NCBI GenBank assembly: GCA_002084765.1
Contig: NBMB01000012.1
Span: 21,084 to 85,083 of the forward strand
Direction of reading: 5' to 3'
Origin: Candidatus Cloacimonetes bacterium 4572_55
GTDB lineage: Bacteria > 4572-55
Length of the DNA: 64,000 nt
Shown: piece after piece, positions 4,049-40,847 of the stretch
Numbering within the stretch: position 1 is the first letter of the stretch
Layout of the letters: every line of letters starts with the position of its first letter
Program-made: the position numbers and the translations under genes
Notes under the pieces: model-generated
What the model was told of the DNA's origin: nothing
Databases searched by the model: none
Seen by the model: only the letters and a program-made list of their open reading frames with translations

Positions 4049-4299
4049 AGCGCAGTAACCGAGATAATGAGTTAAGGAGTGCCGCCATACAGCGCAAAAA
4101 TATGAAAACTAAATGAAATATAATCAGATTCTCATAAAATTGCTTGCGATTCTTAAAAAATTCGATAATTTCTAACCAAAATAATTCGTCACAAGAGGCA
4201 GTAAAGCATGGAAGGTGATCCGCAGATTACGCAAATTACCATAGAGTTTTGACGCAAAATTCGTCATTCGTCATTCATAGAAACATATTCGGCATTAAC

Positions 4300-4510
4300 A
4301 AGTGCCATAAGGCTTAATCGGGAAACCGGTGCGATTCCGGTACAGTCCCCGCTACTGTAATTGGTGACAAACCCAACCACGCCACTGTCCTGTAGATGGG
4401 AAGGCATGGGTGACGGATGATCCATGAGTCAGGAGACCTGCTTGATAATGCGCTGGACCGATCCTTCGGGGGGTGAGGAGAAGTGTCGTCGGCACAGTTG
4501 GATGAATCCA
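4300..4510 (+). promoter_or_regulatory. cobalamin (B12) riboswitch
   Basis: AATCGGGAAACCGGTGCGATTCCGG, GCCACTG, and B12-box-like AGTCAGGAGACCTGC at 4427-4441, immediately upstream of a TonB-dependent receptor gene. Confidence 0.8.
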
Positions 4511-4596: not shown

Positions 4597-6762
4597 ATGA
4601 AAAACGTTACTATTATTTTCCTCTGGATAGCATTTTTCCTCCCACCCTGGACAGTTCAAGCCGACGCGGTAAGCGGTCGATTGGTGGACGCGCAGACAGG
4701 ACGACCAGTTATCAGCGCGGAGATCCGATTCCATCTCGACCAATCGCTCTCCGAATATCGCGTCAGCGACGATCAAGGTCGCTTCTTTTTTGCCATAGAA
4801 AAATCCATCGCCTGTTCCCTGACGATCTGTCATATCGGATACAAAACCGTGACTCTGCCAGTTGATTATTCGACGACCATGAGAGTCTGTTTACAACCGA
4901 ATCTGCTTGAATCTCCGACTCTGCTGGTAACTGGATCCAGATTGCCCATGTTTGCCAACGATATCGCGGGTTCAATCAGCCTGATCACTTCCGAGGACTT
5001 GGCGCACGCAACGGGCTCCTCTCTGTCCGACGTGATGCGCGGGGTCGGGGGGATGACGCAACGAGCGTACGGAGGACCAGGAGGATTGCGCGCCTTATCG
5101 ATTCGAGGAGGCGCGACGCATCACACCGTAGTTTTGCTGGACGGCGTCCGCATCAATAGCGATCAAAATGGGATTCTGGACGGAAATATTTTGCCATTAT
5201 CGATTATCCGACAGATTGAGGTCTATAAAAGTGGCAATTCCGCGGTACATGGCGCGGACGCGGTCTCCGGCGTGATCAATATCTCGACGGAACAGCACCA
5301 AATTCCTGGATTTCGGATAGCTGCCAGCGTCGGTTCATTCGGCTATCGGGATATAAGCGGATCTGCCTCGCAATCTCACGATTCCTTCGGAGATCTGAGC
5401 ATGATTTTTTCCGATGAACGGTCGGACGGGGATTTCCCCTATCGTTACAGGGGGAAAGAACAGAAGCGGACACATGCCGATTATCACCGTCAAAATTTAT
5501 TGGTCAAATACAGCGTTAATCCATTTCAAAATCTATCTTTAAAATGGCAGACTCTTTATCATCAATCAGATGTCGGCGCGCCGAGACAGATCAGTCAAGG
5601 CGAAAGTTCTGCAAGCCAAGGCGCGCGCCAACATGATGAAAATTTGTTCGGGCAGTGCGTTGTGACATATCTGTTTCACAAAAAGCACTCGTTAGAACTG
5701 ACTCTGTTCGGTCAATCGGATGATCAGAAATACAATGACCCAAATATTGTTATCAACGGCGAAGTTCTCGATAGCCGTCACGAACCGAGTAGCGCGGGCG
5801 GGCGCGTCGATTTTCAGGCAAAAAATAGAGGAATTCATTCGTTCGATATGGGCTATGAATTTCGGATCGGGAAAATTCGCAGCACAGATGTCCGCGGAAC
5901 TATTCGTGGCCGACATAGCTTTTTTTTCCTGGATGTGATTCGCCCTCAAATTGGAGGGGAATCTGCGCGCGTCTCGTTGCAACCAGCTTTTCGTATCGAT
6001 CATTTTTCCGATTTTGGTGCTCAGTATAGCCCAAAGATCGGCATACTGGTATCGATAGGCTCAATAATGGATCGGGCACTCTCAATATCCAGTTATGCAA
6101 ATGTCGGACGTAACTTCCGAGCACCCACATTCAACGATATGTACTGGCGAGAAGGCGGCAATCCCGAGCTTGATCCGGAACAGGCTCTGCACGCAGAAGC
6201 CGGAGCTCTTGTGAGCCAGAGTCATGGTGCGATCAGGTGGGAAATCAAAGCCAGCACTTTTTTGAATCACATCAAAAACCAAATTATCTGGCAGCCGAAC
6301 AGCGACGGTATCTGGCGACCGCAAAATTTGAGCGAGGTTCATATCCATGGTTGGGAGAGCGACGTAACGCTGATTTTATTTCATAATCGCCTTAAATTAA
6401 ACGGTAACTGTAGCCGAGTCCTTTCTCGACATCACGCGCCGGGGCAACACACACACAACCAACAATCGCCTTATATACCGGAAACCTCGTGCAACTTCTC
6501 TCTTCAAGCAAAACAGAAAGGGTGGCGAGGATCAGTCTCGATTCATTATGAGGGACAGCGGTATATCACTCTGAACAATTCATCCTATCTCCCTGATTAT
6601 TACCGTGTTGACGGGCAGATCGGCTATCGATTTTTATGGAAAAATTACAAGCAGACCGTGGAAATCGAAGCACTGAATGTAACCGACGCCCGTTATGAGA
6701 CGATCAAATATTTCCCAGCAGTTAGCCGAGAATATAGGCTGCGATTTGTTATTTCATTCTAA
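4597..6762 (+). CDS. TonB-dependent outer-membrane receptor, probably cobalamin transporter (BtuB-like)
   Basis: Signal peptide, CarbopepD_reg-like N-terminus, plug-domain blocks (LLVTGSR, SIRGG, VVLLDGVRIN), C-terminal aromatic residue (…VISF), B12 riboswitch in leader. Confidence 0.85.
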   Translation: MKNVTIIFLWIAFFLPPWTVQADAVSGRLVDAQTGRPVISAEIRFHLDQSLSEYRVSDDQGRFFFAIEKSIACSLTICHIGYKTVTLPVDYSTTMRVCLQPNLLESPTLLVTGSRLPMFANDIAGSISLITSEDLAHATGSSLSDVMRGVGGMTQRAYGGPGGLRALSIRGGATHHTVVLLDGVRINSDQNGILDGNILPLSIIRQIEVYKSGNSAVHGADAVSGVINISTEQHQIPGFRIAASVGSFGYRDISGSASQSHDSFGDLSMIFSDERSDGDFPYRYRGKEQKRTHADYHRQNLLVKYSVNPFQNLSLKWQTLYHQSDVGAPRQISQGESSASQGARQHDENLFGQCVVTYLFHKKHSLELTLFGQSDDQKYNDPNIVINGEVLDSRHEPSSAGGRVDFQAKNRGIHSFDMGYEFRIGKIRSTDVRGTIRGRHSFFFLDVIRPQIGGESARVSLQPAFRIDHFSDFGAQYSPKIGILVSIGSIMDRALSISSYANVGRNFRAPTFNDMYWREGGNPELDPEQALHAEAGALVSQSHGAIRWEIKASTFLNHIKNQIIWQPNSDGIWRPQNLSEVHIHGWESDVTLILFHNRLKLNGNCSRVLSRHHAPGQHTHNQQSPYIPETSCNFSLQAKQKGWRGSVSIHYEGQRYITLNNSSYLPDYYRVDGQIGYRFLWKNYKQTVEIEALNVTDARYETIKYFPAVSREYRLRFVISF

Positions 6763-23486: not shown

Positions 23487-23879
23487 TGGTGGAGGCGGCG
23501 GGAATCGAACCCGCGTCCGAAAATACATCCAACCGATCTTCTACATGCTTATCCCGTATTTTTTTATCCCGTCCTATCAAATCCTTACGGGCGAGTCTTT
23601 AATAGGACAGATCCGCATTATTCTCATCTAAATAACGGCGAACGCGTTATCAGACCAGCCCACTTTACCGTCGTCCTTATCCGCCCACGTGGGCGAAGGC
23701 GGTAAGGACGGCCGCCTAAATTTAGGCGGCAAGCACCATCGAGTTGCCAGAGGCAACGGGATAGCTTGCAACATCATAGTTTGCAGTTAAATTTATCTCC
23801 CGCGAATTTTACGAGTTAGCGGAACTTACTCGACATGCCGACCAACCTTCGGTATCCCCGTCGAATCCAAGTCGCCCCC
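23487..23879 (-). ncRNA. ssrA: tmRNA (transfer-messenger RNA)
   Basis: 5-prime GGGGGCGACUUGGAUUCGACGGGG and 3-prime UUCGAUUCCCGCCGCCUCCACCA tRNA-like ends. Internal tag ORF ends ...MVLAA-stop (GTG CTT GCC GCC TAA). Confidence 0.9.
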
Positions 23880-32842: not shown

Positions 32843-33187
32843 CTATAACAGTCCCAGATCAAATCGGGCGGCTTCACTCATCATATCTTGGCTCCAGGGC
32901 GGATCCCAGACCACCTCGACGCGCGCGTCTTTCACTTCCGGCACCGTTTGGACCTTATTTTCGATAAACAGCGGCATCGATATAGCGACCGGACAAGCTG
33001 GCGTTGTGAGCGTCATCTTCACGGTCACATAGCGATCGTCGTCGATATCGATGCTATAAATGAGCCCCAATTCATAGATATCGACTGGTATCTCCGGATC
33101 ATAGCAGGTCTTAATCGCTTTGATAATATCTTGCTCAAGCTCTCTTTTATCCTTCATTTTTATTTCCTTTTTCCGGCAATAGCTCAT
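32843..33187 (-). CDS. sufT: Fe-S assembly protein SufT-like (DUF59 / MIP18 family)
   Basis: DUF59 blocks CYDPEIPVDIYELGLIY and TTPACP; last gene of the suf operon. Confidence 0.7.
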   Translation of the reverse strand: MSYCRKKEIKMKDKRELEQDIIKAIKTCYDPEIPVDIYELGLIYSIDIDDDRYVTVKMTLTTPACPVAISMPLFIENKVQTVPEVKDARVEVVWDPPWSQDMMSEAARFDLGLL

Positions 33188-33196
33188 AAAACGGCG

Positions 33197-33646
33197 TCAT
33201 TCTGAGGTGGCTCTATCTTTCTTTTTCAGAGAGGCTTCCAAGGCGTGCCAGACCAAAGTCGCGCACTTGACCCTTACCGGAAATTCTCGAACTCCTGCGA
33301 ACACCGCCAATTTTCCGAGTCCCTCAAAGTTGATCTCCATTCCCGGTTTTTGAGTCACCATCTCTTGAAAACGATGAAAAAGCGACTCTGCCTCTTCCAC
33401 AGTTTTGGATTTCAAAGCATCGGTCATCAGCGACGCTGCGGCTTTAGAGATCGCACAGCCGTGTCCCTGGAAACAAATATCCTCGATCCGACCCTCTTTT
33501 ACAACCAGATAGAGATGAACCTCATCTCCACAAAGCGGATTGTATCCTTTCGCGTCGTGTGTCGCAAAGTCTATCTTGCGAAAATTACGCGGGTCATTAT
33601 TATGATCCAGGATTACCTCCTGATACAACTCTCTCAAATCTTCCAC
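33197..33646 (-). CDS. sufU: Fe-S cluster scaffold / sulfur-acceptor SufU (NifU/IscU-like)
   Basis: Conserved Cys ligand blocks PLCGDEV and GHGCAISKA. Confidence 0.8.
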   Translation of the reverse strand: MEDLRELYQEVILDHNNDPRNFRKIDFATHDAKGYNPLCGDEVHLYLVVKEGRIEDICFQGHGCAISKAAASLMTDALKSKTVEEAESLFHRFQEMVTQKPGMEINFEGLGKLAVFAGVREFPVRVKCATLVWHALEASLKKKDRATSE

Positions 33647-33664: not shown

Positions 33665-34921
33665 CTAAAAAAACATTTTGAAAACTTTATCGATCCCTAT
33701 CATAAATCGGTCGATATCTTCCGTCGTATTATAGAATGATAGCGAAATTCGGGACGTTCCCGGAATACCGAAGCGTGACATCAGCGGCTGAGTGCAGTGA
33801 TGACCCGTGCGTATGGCAATGCCTTCGTGATCCAAAATAGTCCCGATATCATGTGGATGCGCTTTATCCGAAATAAAGGAAATGGTCGAAGATTTGCGCG
33901 CAGCCTTGCCAATAATCTTGACCGACTTGATCGTTGACATAGCGTCGGTAGCGTATCTCAGAAGACCTTGTTCATAGGGTTCGATATTCTCAAAACCGAG
34001 ACTGTCCAGATAATCGATCGCGGCTCCAAGACCGATCACTCCGGAAATATTAGGAGTCCCTGCCTCAAATCGATGTGGAAGCTCATTATAAATCGTCTTT
34101 TCAAATGAGACAGACAAGATCATATCCCCGCCGCCTTGATAGGGAGGCAAGGTCGAAAGCAACTCCTGTTTGCCGTATAATACGCCAACGCCGGTCGGAG
34201 CGCACATCTTATGCCCGGAAAAAGCATAAAAATCGCAGTCCAAGTCCAACACGTCTATCGCTGTGTGAGAAGTCGCCTGAGCACCGTCCACCAACACTCG
34301 CGCGCCATGTCGATGCGCAGCCTCAACCATCTGCTTTATCGGGTTTATCGTTCCTAACGAATTCGAGATATGAATCACGCTCACCAACTTTGTGCGATGG
34401 TTCAGCAATTTTTCATATTCCTCCAACATCAGCTCTCCATTGTCGTTGACCGGAATCACACGCAGGCGAGCACCGATCCGGTCACACAGAAGTTGCCACG
34501 GCACAATATTAGAATGATGCTCCAGATGCGAGATAAGAATCTCGTCCCCTTCACGGATATATTTTTGACCAAAGCTCGCGGCGACCAGATTGATCGCGCC
34601 TGTGGTTCCGCTACAGAAAACGATTTCCTTTGTCGAATCTGCATTGATAAAGTGCCGAACCTTTTCCCGGGACGCCTCGAAAGCATCCGTAGCCGCCTGA
34701 CTCAGATGATGCACGCCTCGATGAATATTCGCGTTAATCGTGCGATAATAATTCTCCACCGCCTGGATCACGGCACTTGGCTTCTGGGAAGTCGCGGCAT
34801 GATCAAAATAGACCAGCGGTTTCCCATTGATCTCTTGGTGCAACGTAGGAAAATCTCGGCGGATCGACTCGACGTCCAGTCCAGTCGAATTCGGGCTGTT
34901 TTTCTTTATATCCATAATCAC
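33665..34921 (-). CDS. sufS: cysteine desulfurase SufS
   Basis: Class-V aminotransferase; PLP-lysine block SGHKMCAPTG; C-terminal catalytic Cys region HHCTQP. Confidence 0.9.
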   Translation of the reverse strand: MIMDIKKNSPNSTGLDVESIRRDFPTLHQEINGKPLVYFDHAATSQKPSAVIQAVENYYRTINANIHRGVHHLSQAATDAFEASREKVRHFINADSTKEIVFCSGTTGAINLVAASFGQKYIREGDEILISHLEHHSNIVPWQLLCDRIGARLRVIPVNDNGELMLEEYEKLLNHRTKLVSVIHISNSLGTINPIKQMVEAAHRHGARVLVDGAQATSHTAIDVLDLDCDFYAFSGHKMCAPTGVGVLYGKQELLSTLPPYQGGGDMILSVSFEKTIYNELPHRFEAGTPNISGVIGLGAAIDYLDSLGFENIEPYEQGLLRYATDAMSTIKSVKIIGKAARKSSTISFISDKAHPHDIGTILDHEGIAIRTGHHCTQPLMSRFGIPGTSRISLSFYNTTEDIDRFMIGIDKVFKMFF

Positions 34922-34937: not shown

Positions 34938-36251
34938 TCAATTTACATGTTCCTTGAATCTTTCCATCACTATTTCCTCGACGCGCTGTCGAGCGGTTTT
35001 GTTTCCGATGTGAGCAAGCACATCTTGAGCAAACGCATAGCGCAACATCGCGTGCGCATTCTCCTCGCTGATTCCACGCGTACGCATGTAGAACAGTGCC
35101 TCTTCGTCAAGCTCTCCGACCGTAGCTCCGTGACTACATTTGACGTCGTCGGCAAAAATTTTCAGGTGAGGTTTGGAATTTATTTTCGCATCTTGCGATA
35201 ACAAAAGAGTTTGGTTTTGTTGAAACGCTTTTGTTTTTTGCGCGTCTTTCCTGACCAAAACCTTGCCGCTAAAAACGCCGACAGCATGGTCGCTCAGGAC
35301 CCCTTTGTATAACTCAGCACTTTGACAATGGGGTTTTGCGTGATCAATAAATGTATGATTATCAACTAATTGACTGCCTCTTGCCAAGTAAAATCCATAC
35401 AGATTCGTCTCAATGCCCTCCGCGTCCAAGAGCACATTCAAGTCGTTTCTCGACAGCGATCCGCCCAAATCGATAGCGACCGAAGAGTAGAGGCTTCCCC
35501 GACTTTGACACACCTGTCGCGCGGCAATATGAAACGCTTGCTCATCCTCGGATTGAATCTTCAGATGCTCGACTCGGGCGTTATTGCCCAGGATAATCTC
35601 CGACGCGCAGTTGTTCAGATATGGGGATTTTCGCAGACTATGATAGCTTTCGATCAATTGAATCCGGCTATTGCGTCCCATAATAAAAAGGTGTCGGGGA
35701 TACGCGGTCGCGCGCTCATTATCCGACAGATGCAGGAGGTGGATCGGCTTCTCAACAATCGTGTGATCCGGCACATAAATAAAGATGCCGTCCGTCGCGA
35801 ACGCGGTGTTCAACGCGACAAACGCGCTGTTTTGAAAGCCGAGATGTTTTGCCAAATGCGTATCTACCAGATCTGCACGTGTCTCAGCGGCATGCGCCAG
35901 ACTGCAAGCGATTATTTCTTCGGAAATCCGGCTTAACTTCCTGTCAAATCGACCGTTGACGCAGACAACGAAATTCTCCTCATCGCCAAGAAGGAGAAAC
36001 GGGTCGATCGCCTCCTTCTTGAGCGAAACCGCCTCAGCAGTCTCGAATTGGCAGGAAAACAGCGAACGAATATCGGTATGTTTCCACTTTTCGTGACGTT
36101 TTGTTGGAAATCCGATCTCGGCAAATCGTGCCATTGCCGTGTCTCGGGTCCCGTTCAGGAGCCGCTGTTTTTTCAGATCGTCCCTTAATCTATCGAATTC
36201 CGAAGCGATCCTTGACAGATATAATGATTTAGCTCTATTATGATCTTTCAT
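34938..36251 (-). CDS. sufD: Fe-S cluster assembly protein SufD
   Basis: 437 aa, SufB/SufD-family beta-helix blocks, position between sufC and sufS. Confidence 0.85.
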   Translation of the reverse strand: MKDHNRAKSLYLSRIASEFDRLRDDLKKQRLLNGTRDTAMARFAEIGFPTKRHEKWKHTDIRSLFSCQFETAEAVSLKKEAIDPFLLLGDEENFVVCVNGRFDRKLSRISEEIIACSLAHAAETRADLVDTHLAKHLGFQNSAFVALNTAFATDGIFIYVPDHTIVEKPIHLLHLSDNERATAYPRHLFIMGRNSRIQLIESYHSLRKSPYLNNCASEIILGNNARVEHLKIQSEDEQAFHIAARQVCQSRGSLYSSVAIDLGGSLSRNDLNVLLDAEGIETNLYGFYLARGSQLVDNHTFIDHAKPHCQSAELYKGVLSDHAVGVFSGKVLVRKDAQKTKAFQQNQTLLLSQDAKINSKPHLKIFADDVKCSHGATVGELDEEALFYMRTRGISEENAHAMLRYAFAQDVLAHIGNKTARQRVEEIVMERFKEHVN

Positions 36252-36253
36252 CT

Positions 36254-37015
36254 TTAATTTACTCTTTTCTTGCTTTTTATCGCCCAGTCATAGCCATGTT
36301 TTTCAAGATGAAGAGCCAACTCCTTGCCGCCGGATTCGACAATTCTCCCCTTTACCAATACATGGACAAAATCCGGCGCAATATAGTCCAACAACCGTTG
36401 GTAGTGTGTGATTAAAACAACGCCGTTTTCCTTAGTATGAAAGCGATTAACGCCGTTCGCCACAATCTTCAGCGCGTCGATATCCAGCCCGGAATCCGTC
36501 TCGTCCAAAACCGCCAATCTTGGATTCAACATACTTAGTTGAAACACCTCGTTGCGTTTTTTTTCTCCTCCGGAAAATCCGTCGTTGACCGAACGCCGGA
36601 GAAATTTCGAGTCCATGTCCAGCATTTTCATCTTATCTTTGGCGAGAGTCAAAAACTCCATAGCATCGATTTTGGATAAGCCATGATACGCCCGAATATC
36701 GTTCACCGCACTCTTTAGAAAATTGGCGATAGATACTCCAGGAATTTCCACAGGGTATTGAAAAGCCAAAAAAAGTCCTTGGCAAGCCCGCTCTTCGGTT
36801 GACATATCCAGCAAATTTTTTCCGTCAAACAAGACCTCTCCGCCCGTCGCTTCATATCCTTCTCGACCTGAAAGAAGATTCGCCAGCGTGCTTTTCCCGG
36901 AACCGTTCGGTCCCATAATAGCGTGAACCTCGCCCCGATTCACTTTCAAATTGATCCCTTTCAGGATTTCAGTATCCTTAACCGACGCTCGTAACTCTTT
37001 AATTTTTAATAACAT
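36254..37015 (-). CDS. sufC: Fe-S cluster assembly ATPase SufC
   Basis: ABC ATPase: Walker A GPNGSGKST, signature FSGGEKKR, Walker B AVLDETDSGLD. Confidence 0.95.
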   Translation of the reverse strand: MLLKIKELRASVKDTEILKGINLKVNRGEVHAIMGPNGSGKSTLANLLSGREGYEATGGEVLFDGKNLLDMSTEERACQGLFLAFQYPVEIPGVSIANFLKSAVNDIRAYHGLSKIDAMEFLTLAKDKMKMLDMDSKFLRRSVNDGFSGGEKKRNEVFQLSMLNPRLAVLDETDSGLDIDALKIVANGVNRFHTKENGVVLITHYQRLLDYIAPDFVHVLVKGRIVESGGKELALHLEKHGYDWAIKSKKRVN

Positions 37016-37060: not shown

Positions 37061-38536
37061 TCACCCTACGCTACCTTCTAAACTCACTGCCAGAAGATTT
37101 TGCGCTTCCACCGCGAACTCCATCGGCAGTTCTCGAAATACCTCTTTACAATAGCCGTTTACAATCAGACTAATAGCGTCTTCGGTAGATATCCCCCGTT
37201 GATTGCAATAGAATATTTGGTCTTCTCCGACCTTTGAGGTCGTGGCTTCATGCTCTACCTTTGCCGTTGGATTATTGACCTCAATATAAGGAAACGTGTG
37301 CGCGCCGCATTGATCCCCGATCAACAGCGAGTCGCACTGAGAAAAATTTCTAGCGTTTTTCGCGTTTTTTGCCACCTTCACCAATCCCCGATAAGAATTT
37401 TGGCTATATCCTGCGGAAACCCCCTTAGAAATAATCGTGCTATGCGTATTTTCCCCCAGATGAATCATTTTTGTGCCGGTATCAGCCTGCTGATAATTAT
37501 TCGTCACCGCGACCGAATAGAATTCACCGATAGAGCGATCTCCTTTTAAGATCACGCTGGGATATTTCCATGTAATCGCAGACCCAGTTTCCACTTGGGT
37601 CCAGGAAATTTTGGCGTTTTTATGGCATATTCCCCGTTTGGTGACAAAATTATAAATTCCTCCCCGACCCTTTTCATCTCCGGGGTACCAGTTCTGGACA
37701 GTCGAGTATTTTACCTCAGCGTCTTTGTGAGAAACGATCTCCACCACCGCGGCGTGCAACTGATTTTCATCCCGCATCGGAGCGGTGCATCCCTCCAGAT
37801 AGCTGACATACGCGCCCTCTTCCGCTACAATCAAGGTGCGCTCAAACTGACCCGTATTCGCAGTATTTATGCGGAAATAGGTGGATAATTCCATGGGACA
37901 GCGGACGCCCTTGGGAATATAACAGAACGACCCGTCGCTGAACACTGCCGAGTTTAACGCAGCATAAAAGTTATCCGTATAGGGAACCACAGTGCCCATA
38001 TATTTTCGTATCAGTTCCGGATGATTTCGGATCGCTTCGGAGAAAGAGCAAAAAATAATGCCCAGTTTGGACAGATCTTTTTTAAACGTAGTCGCAACCG
38101 AGGCACTGTCCATAATCGCATCGACCGCTACGCCGCTGATACGTTTCTGCTCTTCAATCGAAATGCCTAGCTTATCAAAAGTTGCCCTCAGCTTTGGGTC
38201 CACCTCGTCGAGACTGTCCAATTTCGCCTTCTTTTTCGGCGCGGCATAATAGATAATATCCTGAAAATCGATAGCGGAATACGAGACGTGAGGCCACGTC
38301 GGCTCGATCATACTCAGCCAATGGCGATACGCGCGCAACCGCCATTCCAACATAAATTCCGGCTCGTTCTTCTTTGCCGAGATCATCCTGACCACGTCCT
38401 CGCTCAATCCTTTGGGGATCGTATCGGTCTCAATATCGGACGTAAATCCATATTTATAATCCGATTTTGTGATCCGTTTCAAGGTCTCTTGCTGATCCTT
38501 GGATCCAAATTTTCCCTCATAATCATCTTTTTGCAT
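37061..38536 (-). CDS. sufB: Fe-S cluster assembly protein SufB
   Basis: 491 aa with SufB-type blocks; first structural gene of the operon. Confidence 0.95.
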
Positions 38537-38580: not shown

Positions 38581-38944
38581 TCAAATTTTTGGTTTTTTTA
38601 CATCCGATAGAAACATCTTTTTCAAATAATTAATGAGCTCTTGCTGAATACCCACCATCATTGTTTGGATATTGCAATTATCGTGTCGATTACAGGCGCG
38701 GTCTCTCTCCTCCTCGCACAGACAATATACCAAGCCGACCGGTCCGTCAATCGCGGATAAAATTGAATAGAGGCTGATCCGCCCCGGGTCATTTTCTTTT
38801 AGACAATAACCGCCCTTTACGCCCTGCACGGAATTGAGCAGACCTTTTTTTTTGAGCGCCTGCATTACTTTACCCAAAATCTCTTTCCGTCAAGTCAACC
38901 ATGACGATCAGTGCATATTCGAACCGTTTGCTAAATTTTAACAT
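38581..38944 (-). pseudogene. Rrf2-family (IscR/SufR-like) regulator, apparently disrupted
   Basis: C-terminal part (KKKGLLNSVQGVKGGY, three-Cys cluster) is in ORF 38581..38877. An Rrf2-like N-terminus MLKFSKRFEYALIVMVDL is encoded from 38944 in a different frame and stops at 38870. About 19 aa of the expected helix-turn-helix is missing. Confidence 0.5.
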
Positions 38945-39146
38945 CTATCGTATCCAATACCGGACTCATTTTGTCGTATTTACAAGGAGTGCTTACGACC
39001 CATGAATATGCTATGTTCCCGAAATCTTATATATTTTTTGGTGGACTCTGGACAGCTGAACAGAACCCTAAACTCCCATCAGCGGCTTGATTTTTCTTTT
39101 GACAAAAAGATAGCCGAAATGAGCCTATATTTCAACAACAATATAG

Positions 39147-39761
39147 CTACAAAAACCACCCGGATAACTGCAAATAACACCGTTTTTCCGCATCTGGTTC
39201 GTCGTGTGGGTGCCACCAACGGCAGAGCGAGACACGCAGCAACGCGCCTGCGGGGATTTCTGGGATCGAGTCCGCCACGCCGACATATGACAGATTCATT
39301 TCGTGGGATTTCAGAGAATATCGAGTGCGACCGCGAGCGTTGGTATACAGGATGAGCTCCTCGTCTGGCTGCCAGAATGCGACGCTTTGTTCTGGAATAC
39401 CATTTTTTTCAGAGATATAGAGACTGCCTCCGCGAGATCGATTCAGCATGCCATGAAAAAGTGTGTCGGGACCCCCGGAACTGATCTGCACGCGGTTCTG
39501 CAACGTTTGTTTAAGATCCCGCGCCCGACCCAGATATTCGCTATGGTAAACGATCACATCCTCCACATGTGGAGGAAACTTTTCTTCCTGCGACGGTGAA
39601 AAGTCCATGTCCCACACCTGACCGACCTCATATTTGGTCGTTATCGGCTGATTTTTGCATCCGGGCTTCATCAGTCGAATATTTTTATTGGTATCCTTAG
39701 CCAGAGCTCCCACACAAAATTTTCCGACCATGTGGGTTTTAGCGACAATGAGAACTCTCAT
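39147..39761 (-). CDS. hypothetical protein (204 aa), last gene of the ATPase/DUF488 operon
   Basis: Start ATG at 39759-39761 overlaps the upstream stop by 4 nt (ATGA). The ORF track extends to 39854 but that part overlaps the upstream gene. No recognisable motif. Confidence 0.55.
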   Translation of the reverse strand: MRVLIVAKTHMVGKFCVGALAKDTNKNIRLMKPGCKNQPITTKYEVGQVWDMDFSPSQEEKFPPHVEDVIVYHSEYLGRARDLKQTLQNRVQISSGGPDTLFHGMLNRSRGGSLYISEKNGIPEQSVAFWQPDEELILYTNARGRTRYSLKSHEMNLSYVGVADSIPEIPAGALLRVSLCRWWHPHDEPDAEKRCYLQLSGWFL

Positions 39762-40246
39762 GGCAAAATATGCTCCGTGTGTATGTTCAAATCCATTTCT
39801 AAACGGTCTGTAATGAGAGACCGGTGACATGCTTTCGGATCTTGTTCCACACAAAATAGAACAACAACGAGATCGTGGATCCCAAAGCTATCAACAAATT
39901 TTTGCGCGTTAAAGTCAGTGAGACACGCGGCGTTATAGGCTTTGATAAAAGCAGGGCTGAGCGCGGCTCGATTCCGTTTTGTTATTTTTTGGCACTGGTC
40001 GTCCGCCCGTTGCACATCACGAATCGCGTTGTTGGGTGCCAGGTCTTTGCGATGGATGTAGCCTATGCCTAATGCTTTCAGTTTTTTTTGTAAGTAGATA
40101 CTGTTGACAAAGGCATACTTTGCCCCGCGCATGCCTCGACGATACCGAATGTCGCAAAACAGACCCACGTTATGCCGAATCAGGGCGTCGAAAAAAGTGG
40201 ATTCGTCAAAGCCATACACGCCAATAGTCATAAATTTCAATATCAT
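39758..40246 (-). CDS. DUF488-like protein (divergent paralog)
   Basis: N-terminal MTIGVYGF...CDIRYRRG and shared C-terminal CHRS motif; 4-nt overlap with the upstream gene. Confidence 0.6.
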   Translation of the reverse strand: MILKFMTIGVYGFDESTFFDALIRHNVGLFCDIRYRRGMRGAKYAFVNSIYLQKKLKALGIGYIHRKDLAPNNAIRDVQRADDQCQKITKRNRAALSPAFIKAYNAACLTDFNAQKFVDSFGIHDLVVVLFCVEQDPKACHRSLITDRLEMDLNIHTEHILP

Positions 40247-40812
40247 AATTTCCTCTTATTTTTGCGATAGGATTTCACAGAGCCAAACGTGTGGCCAAAC
40301 AAACCCTGTTGCCCTCCAGTTAGTCGCCGCATCACCTCTGACTGGCTTTTGAGTTCCCCCAGCTCATCAATGTGCCGCACGTCAATTCCGTTCTGAACCA
40401 GTGTTTCACTGATCAACTTACTCCGATGACACTGCTCTGGTTTGAGTTCGGAACACATCAAGGCGACCCGATATTTTTTGTCCAGCGCAGTTGCGAGGCG
40501 AGAAATACCGTCACGATAAAAAGGAGCTCGGCTCAGCTTGGCATAATCGATTTTCTCATTGGTAAAATATTTCATATCATCGGGTTTACCGCCCAACTGC
40601 CGCCCTATAAACAGATACCCGACGCCGTTTTCCTTCAGACGCCTTTCCAATTTAATTTTTGAAAAGTCCTCATTAAACGCGGAAAACGGCGCAGATCGAA
40701 CGTCTGCCACATAGTCGATTCCATAGCATTTTATCAGAGCTATAAAATCGCCAATAGCGCGGTTGCCGTATCCAATAGTATAGATACTGTTCAGGGTATT
40801 CGGTTCGGTCAT
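40243..40812 (-). CDS. DUF488-family protein (YeaO-like)
   Basis: Hallmark N-terminus TIGYGNR...VADVRSAPFS, GVGYLFIGRQLGG, and CHRS motif. Confidence 0.7.
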   Translation of the reverse strand: MTEPNTLNSIYTIGYGNRAIGDFIALIKCYGIDYVADVRSAPFSAFNEDFSKIKLERRLKENGVGYLFIGRQLGGKPDDMKYFTNEKIDYAKLSRAPFYRDGISRLATALDKKYRVALMCSELKPEQCHRSKLISETLVQNGIDVRHIDELGELKSQSEVMRRLTGGQQGLFGHTFGSVKSYRKNKRKL

Positions 40813-40847
40813 TGGATCAAAAGAATGTTTGGAATTTAGGCTTTCAC

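Follow-up and report, generated by a model that had tools for sequence, protein, structure and literature searches.

RisR (MXAN_1152) of Myxococcus xanthus is an Rrf2-type regulator of Fe-S homeostasis encoded in the risR-sufBCDSUT operon (PMC9973013). The footprint of holo-RisR holds a GAC-N7-GTC element with AT-rich flanks, found upstream of both risR-sufBCDSUT and isc, and both operons are repressed (PMC9973013). In E. coli, the IscR type-1 site, ATASYYGACTRWWWYAGTCRRSTAT, is bound only by holo-IscR, which represses isc (PMC3899308). The DNA-binding domain of Rrf2 proteins, the H-wHTH, consists of helices 1-3 and a beta-hairpin wing, and Lx3Gx6Gx2GGx2L is its helix-3/wing motif (PMC9338935).

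An operon comparable to that of RisR occupies the minus strand of the 64-kb window analyzed here, a stretch of 64,000 nt from a metagenome-assembled genome (MAG). An rrf2 gene, present in the window as two fragments, is followed by sufB (37061-38536, starting 44 nt past the rrf2 stop), sufC (36254-37015), sufD (34938-36251), sufS (33665-34921), sufU (NifU_N; 33197-33646) and sufT (FeS_assembly_P/DUF59; 32843-33187). The last four genes were assigned by a Pfam scan, and matches to SufBD_N and SUFBD_core (SufB) and to ABC_tran (SufC) are on record for the identical proteins of a second contig that carries an intact rrf2 allele (see below). The spacers within the operon are 2-45 nt long, and tRNA-Val and thrS come after sufT. 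As in M. xanthus, the regulator gene heads an rrf2-sufB-sufC-sufD-sufS-sufU-sufT operon and its product has three conserved cysteines, and the palindrome upstream of the gene, matched here in silico, shares the GAC-N7-GTC core and the A/T-rich flanks. In contrast to the M. xanthus system, the locus belongs to another phylum, the window has no isc operon, and the window copy of the regulator carries a 59-nt deletion. By gene order, cysteines and operator, the protein may be likened to RisR. This uncultured bacterium of the Guaymas Basin (Candidatus Cloacimonetes bacterium 4572_55 in GenBank) thus has an unremarkable rrf2-sufBCDSUT operon that is RisR/IscR-like and probably autoregulated.

The predicted operator, AAATACGAC-AAAATGA-GTCCGGTATT (38956-38981, minus strand), is a GAC-N7-GTC palindrome that is identical in the intact allele. 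A position weight matrix trained on related loci only, with the window left out (training range 16.7-40.1), gave a single top match in the 64 kb, at about 38956-38982 (28.9 bits); the next, unrelated site scored 9.7. Among the relatives, GAC-N7-GTC occurs within 130 nt upstream of rrf2 in 50 of 76, the background being 0.02 per 130 nt. These copies have the consensus TAAATAGGACTAAAATGGTCGTATTTT, also written AAATAsGAC-N7-GTCGtATTT, and are mostly found 30-40 nt 5' of the rrf2 start. The core GACTAAATTAGTC of the relatives' operator agrees with that of the IscR type-1 site, GACTRWWWYAGTC, but the outer ATA/TAT arms of the consensus are 2 nt nearer the core than in the E. coli IscR consensus. 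Some of the related loci have two operator copies (for example L088, L090, L094, L099 and L115), and a GGAATAAA box recurs in many of them some 30 nt 5' of the operator. A scan for sigma-70 promoters was uninformative and did not locate the promoter, with four matches found and 2.1 expected; only one match precedes the rrf2 start, some 125 nt upstream of the operator.

The predicted operator lies 12 nt from the rrf2 ATG, and this position, together with the precedent of the described regulators, suggests autorepression by an Fe-S-loaded dimer. By analogy, such a dimer of the intact protein would bind the GAC-N7-GTC element just 5' of its own start codon and repress its own operon as long as cluster supply suffices, and loss of the cluster would lift repression. 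Repression would presumably be by occlusion, a suggestion drawn from the operator position and precedent. Cells with the deletion would then express suf constitutively.

The family profile matched the structures of Rrf2-fold proteins, namely 4CIC with an E value of 3.6e-20 and the IscR entries with values of about 1e-15, and the protein shares this fold with IscR from E. coli and Thermincola potens (PDB 4HF0-2, 4CHU and 4CIC). Unlike iscR, however, the gene is linked to suf and not to isc, and the product of the intact allele falls short of the IscR equivalog models TIGR02010 (63.9 versus 207.55 bits) and NF008110 (47.2 versus 275 bits). The same logic of an rrf2 gene upstream of suf holds for TIGR02944, a SUF system Fe-S cluster assembly regulator of the gammaproteobacterial Rrf2 type. 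This was the best specific model after the superfamily model, with 69.3 bits for the intact allele and 78-97 for the relatives, against a cut-off of 110.65. Since the cut-offs of both the IscR and the TIGR02944 equivalogs are missed, we file the protein as a RisR/IscR-like suf regulator of the Rrf2 family and as a member of neither equivalog. SufR of cyanobacteria and actinobacteria (COG2345) is reported to have the same role as an Fe-S-sensing repressor at the head of a suf operon, but it belongs to an unrelated protein family; the protein described here is an Rrf2 protein (PF02082, 111 bits).

In the window, the rrf2 gene is read in two frames. The 5' fragment (38870-38944, minus strand) begins with an ATG at 38944, runs for 24 codons and ends at a TAA at 38872-38870; its translation is MLKFSKRFEYALIVMVDLTERDFG. 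Of these codons, 1-21 belong to the genuine gene and encode helix 1 (MLKFSKRFEYALIVMVDLTER), and the final three (DFG) are read out of frame. The 3' fragment (38581-38889, minus strand; stop at 38583-38581) is in the +1 frame relative to the 5' fragment and is preceded by a TGA at 38892-38890. It reads RKEILGKVMQALKKKGLLNSVQGVKGGYCL...KPKI, or RKEILGKVMQALKKKGLLNSVQGVKGGYCLKEN...KPKI, and contains helix 3, the wing, the three conserved cysteines and the dimerization helix. Two internal starts are possible within it, a TTG at 38877 (98 aa) and an ATG at 38865 (94 aa), and the latter ORF is annotated in GenBank as OQY29250.1 ("hypothetical protein B6244_04475", on a contig of 109,798 bp).

The C-terminal piece matched Pfam Rrf2 (PF02082) over profile positions 38-129 of 132 (E 2.6e-20; 73.3 bits against a cut-off of 30), and the N-terminal piece shares 17 of 21 residues with the start of the closest relative (E 1e-10). 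As judged by these similarity scores, both pieces lie far beyond chance. Thus, two points of the initial annotation hold, that an Rrf2-like C-terminus with three cysteines is intact upstream of sufB and that the N-terminus lies in a different frame and runs into a stop at 38870. Scanning the window in six frames with a family HMM, built on an alignment of nine rows (A1) of which one is the window's own merged sequence, returned only these two pieces, at HMM positions 1-21 and 40-136, and no second Rrf2 paralogue in the 64 kb. The closest non-self relative (P0003, 236 aa) has a 73-residue extension ahead of the canonical MLKFSKKFEYAL start, which is probably due to a mis-called start codon.

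The two pieces do not add up to a complete protein. Relative to 132 full-length homologues, the window copy has gaps at 19 columns that are occupied in more than 80% of them (consensus PDGELVSAREIAEKYNIPF), exactly the number of helix-turn-helix residues that had been estimated as missing. A phmmer search against 1.84 billion representatives produced 2440 matches, among which identity to the nearest relatives other than the query itself reaches only 48-49%, and residue 3 of the query falls at position 40-41 of most of them. The shorter matches that were examined lack helix 1 and keep helix 2; none joins helix 1 to helix 3, and they have the appearance of gene calls that were truncated or begun at the wrong start. 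A scan of metagenomes with the C-terminal fragment alone gave 312 stretches, none of which was confirmed, and a rescan with alignment A1 succeeded. The deleted segment is present in all 80 metagenomic relatives, of which about 45 have sufB downstream of rrf2, and in one Calditrichota locus (L012); aligning the merged query with any of these 81 loci opens 20 or more gap columns. A conserved short architecture, the alternative under which orthologues would share the form seen in the window, was therefore excluded, as it is found in 0 of 81 related loci and 0 of 132 full-length homologues.

The missing segment was found in a second assembly, which stems from the same study of the sediment. At 90% identity, the annotated 94-aa fragment clusters with one other protein, an intact one of 140 aa (P0152; sources Logan and ENA) that consists of MLKFSKRFEYALIVMVDLTER, ESDAPITARSLAERYHIPN and EILGKV...KPKI. 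Residues 1-21 of this protein are identical to codons 1-21 of the 5' fragment, and residues 42-140 are identical to the 3' fragment. The allele lies on a contig of 72,373 bp (ENA ERZ23491059, sample SAMN06288063, "DOMB18-1_SAMN06288063_METAG-scaffold_237") with the same neighbors and gene order as in the window, and another contig encodes exactly the same 140-aa product, so that two contigs have an intact gene. A look-up with a short flanking sequence did not recover the second of them. The initial annotation had held that a canonical ORF of about 140 aa, if restored by re-sequencing, would refute a disrupted regulator, and in effect this independent assembly supplies one.

Alignment of the DNA of the two alleles showed identity at 451 window positions and a single gap of 59 nt in the window. 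When the 10.4-kb locus around the lesion was compared by blastn, it gave one segment of 5065 nt at 100% identity and another of 5307 nt with two mismatches. Both mismatches fall inside the 8-nt overlap of the HSPs (window 38880-38887), leaving zero SNPs over 10.4 kb. The identical flanks indicate that the two contigs share one clonal background and possibly overlapping read sets. At the junction (38880-38887, minus strand), the window reads GAAAGAGA followed by TTTTGGG (in longer form, ...GACGGAAAGAGA followed by TTTTGGGTAAAG...), and the 59 nt absent directly 3' of it are AGTCGGACGCGCCGATCACTGCCCGATCTCTGGCGGAGCGGTATCATATCCCGAATGAA, positions 5066-5124 of the intact-allele locus (L161). A loss of 59 nt, 19 codons plus 2 nt, shifts the frame by one base. 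From the frames alone, a loss of 3n + 2 nt had been predicted, most likely of 59 nt and with a junction at about 38884-38879. The deleted segment ends, in the intact allele, in GAATGAAA, an imperfect copy of the retained GAAAGAGA (6/8 match). This repeat at the ends of the deletion is only suggestive; the exact microhomology at the breakpoint amounts to 1 nt only. Folding of the deleted region as single-strand DNA revealed nothing unusual in the way of a hairpin (z = +0.72).

The position of the lesion at 38887-38880 also disposes of the proposal that the two frames could be merged at a run of T. This run (A9 on the coding, minus strand; 38845-38853) encodes KKK, lies downstream of the stop of the N-terminal frame and has the same length in the intact allele.

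The consequences for the protein were read from an AF2 model of the intact 140-aa allele, made from a 3-row alignment (mean pLDDT 70.6, with block means of 79-92 for residues 21-60). The model has helices H1 (6-20), H2 (29-36) and H3 (40-52), wing strands at 56-58 and 65-68, and a long C-terminal helix (112-129). On this model, the lost residues, 22-40, extend from the H1-H2 loop through the whole of H2 and the turn to the first residue of H3. With helix 2 deleted and the frame shifted, the window copy cannot form the DNA-binding domain, and it cannot yield a regulator competent for DNA binding. The complete H-wHTH set of elements is found in the intact allele but not in the window copy, which lacks helix 2. 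In line with this, the intact allele matches Pfam Rrf2 (PF02082) with 111.2 bits over profile positions 2-129 and scores 94.3 bits against TIGR00738 (cut-off 73.3), whereas the merged window product scores 66.3 and stays below that cut-off. Elsewhere, the gene shows no decay. The wing motif is present in the C-terminal frame (LKKKGLLNSVQGVKGGYCL, which conforms to Lx3Gx6Gx2GGx2L), C75, C85 and C91 of the merged sequence are all kept and fall in columns that are 100% Cys in the 132 homologues, and 17 of 18 family-conserved columns (at least 70%) keep the consensus residue in the window copy. The operator and the downstream suf genes are intact as well.

We conclude that a single 59-nt deletion in the window is set against a coexisting intact allele, and almost certainly the lineage as a whole has not lost the regulator. 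Whether the deletion exists in cells or only in the assembly is a closer matter. The source MAG was obtained from Guaymas Basin sediment with reads of 2 x 125 bp (PMC5569505). It was assembled with IDBA-UD (mink 75, maxk 105) from two pooled depths of dive 4572, 0-3 cm and 12-15 cm (PMC5569505). Pooling of the libraries means that SAMN06288063 may have other allele frequencies. A de Bruijn assembler run at k = 75-105 should emit only junction k-mers that occur in reads. We slightly favor the reading in which, taken as a whole, the deletion is a real and very recent allele in the read pool of dive 4572 and not a fixed trait, and it is the expectation that the junction k-mers come from reads that makes us lean this way. 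The proposition that the suf repressor has a true loss-of-function allele coexisting with an intact one in a single clonal population of a hydrothermal sediment we consider to have an even chance.

The main alternative is that the 59 nt were dropped during the IDBA-UD co-assembly of the two depths, for example by a local mis-join at a low-coverage, G+C-rich stretch, and that the organism has the intact gene only. We regard this as a distinct possibility, though a somewhat improbable one. It agrees with the intact gene on two other contigs that come from other pipelines (ENA and Logan), with the absence of decay in the remainder of rrf2, with the pooled origin of the MAG and with the minimal microhomology (1 nt) at the breakpoint. 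The flanks, 100% identical and with zero SNPs over 10.4 kb, are also as an artefact would leave them, but they fit a very recent mutation equally well. Conversely, on general knowledge of assemblers, the junction k-mers at k of at least 75 should stem from reads, and an imperfect repeat of 8 nt cannot collapse a de Bruijn graph. Nor is the MAG assembly generally prone to indels. ORFs of 800-1063 aa elsewhere in the window are intact, and the only other split gene, that of an AAA ATPase, recurs in the independent assembly. Exact-product look-ups of the 94-aa and 98-aa fragments and of SufB returned no record in the index searched, which is incomplete. Since that index is without the window SufB, although an identical SufB is encoded by the intact-allele contig, these negatives say nothing on the frequency of the deleted allele.

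A different possibility is pseudogenization at the level of the lineage, in which Rrf2 control would have been lost and constitutive suf expression become a fixed trait. The gene is indeed broken in the deposited MAG, and suf operons with no adjacent Rrf2 gene are common. When genome contigs were scanned with SufB, the relatives were at most 80% identical, and among the best 80 genome loci by SufB similarity, mostly from Bacteroidota, just two have an Rrf2 gene directly upstream of sufB. Against this, the intact allele lies on an identical haplotype, and the operator and conserved residues are intact. An intact regulator is present in the population whether the deleted allele is real or an artefact, and a loss of Rrf2 control by the lineage is therefore unsupported; we consider it very improbable. 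Thus, what the initial annotation called a disrupted regulator stands for the window copy, in which helix 2 is gone and the frame is shifted. The release of suf from Rrf2 control throughout the organism does not, given the intact allele on an otherwise identical contig. The lesion is in an ordinary, known type of operon and is not a property of the whole organism. The two genome loci with Rrf2 upstream of sufB are L012 (Calditrichota) and L079 (a gammaproteobacterial MAG); in L048, the Rrf2 gene is downstream. Evidently, the phylogeny of SufB does not track that of Rrf2.

We likewise consider it very improbable that the 3' fragment is expressed as such, in the form of a truncated product of 94-98 aa from the ATG at 38865 or the TTG at 38877 that would serve as an Fe-S-binding or dimerization module devoid of the helix-turn-helix. 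The ORF is open and is called in GenBank, the cysteine ligands and the dimerization helix are present, and the distance of 4 nt from the TAA of the 24-codon ORF to the ATG means that the product could perhaps arise by re-initiation. However, no convincing ribosome-binding site is visible, and this architecture is absent among the 2440 phmmer matches, the short ones examined being N-terminal truncations that contain helix 2. Finally, a programmed +1 ribosomal frameshift at GGG-TAA-A, of the kind known from prfB, could be imagined to join the frames, as the C-terminal frame is +1 of the N-terminal one and GGG followed by a stop is a conceivable shift site, but such a fusion would still be 19 conserved residues short, a single ORF encodes the protein in the intact allele and in all relatives, and the 59-nt gap relative to the intact allele contradicts it, so that this reading is barely credible.

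If the deletion is a real allele, then it would provide a small natural experiment on constitutive suf expression. If true, it would represent a natural regulatory polymorphism, constitutive versus Fe-S-sensed suf, along a steep gradient of sulfide and redox, and the deleted allele might be more frequent in one of the two pooled layers (0-3 cm and 12-15 cm) than in the other. A caution for the use of MAGs also follows, as the regulator gene that appears to be a pseudogene in the deposited MAG (OQY29250.1) has an intact counterpart when the same population is assembled independently; a loss of regulation claimed from a single MAG needs a check at the level of the reads. With its conserved predicted operator, the rrf2-suf subfamily, which occurs in Calditrichota and in numerous uncultured lineages from sediments, adds to the phyla in which a known regulatory logic is seen.

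Directly upstream of rrf2 (39147-42541, minus strand) are genes for a DuOB (dual OB) protein, for two DUF488 proteins and for the split ATPase, a cluster that looks like an accessory or defense-type island. The ATPase (AAA_15/AAA_21; 40848-42541, minus strand) is divided into 41876-42541 (221 aa, the Walker A end) and 40848-41924 (358 aa). The halves overlap by 49 nt in different frames, near runs of G5 and A7, and the split is identical in the independent assembly; it is a real frameshift or pseudogene, or else a deliberate shift. Further along the window is a complete and ordinary rRNA operon (47890-52797, minus strand) with 16S, tRNA-Ile, tRNA-Ala, 23S and 5S genes. The tmRNA gene (23487-23879, minus strand; tag ANYDVASYPVASGNSMVLAA) and a cobalamin riboswitch (4283-4459, plus strand) are likewise ordinary.
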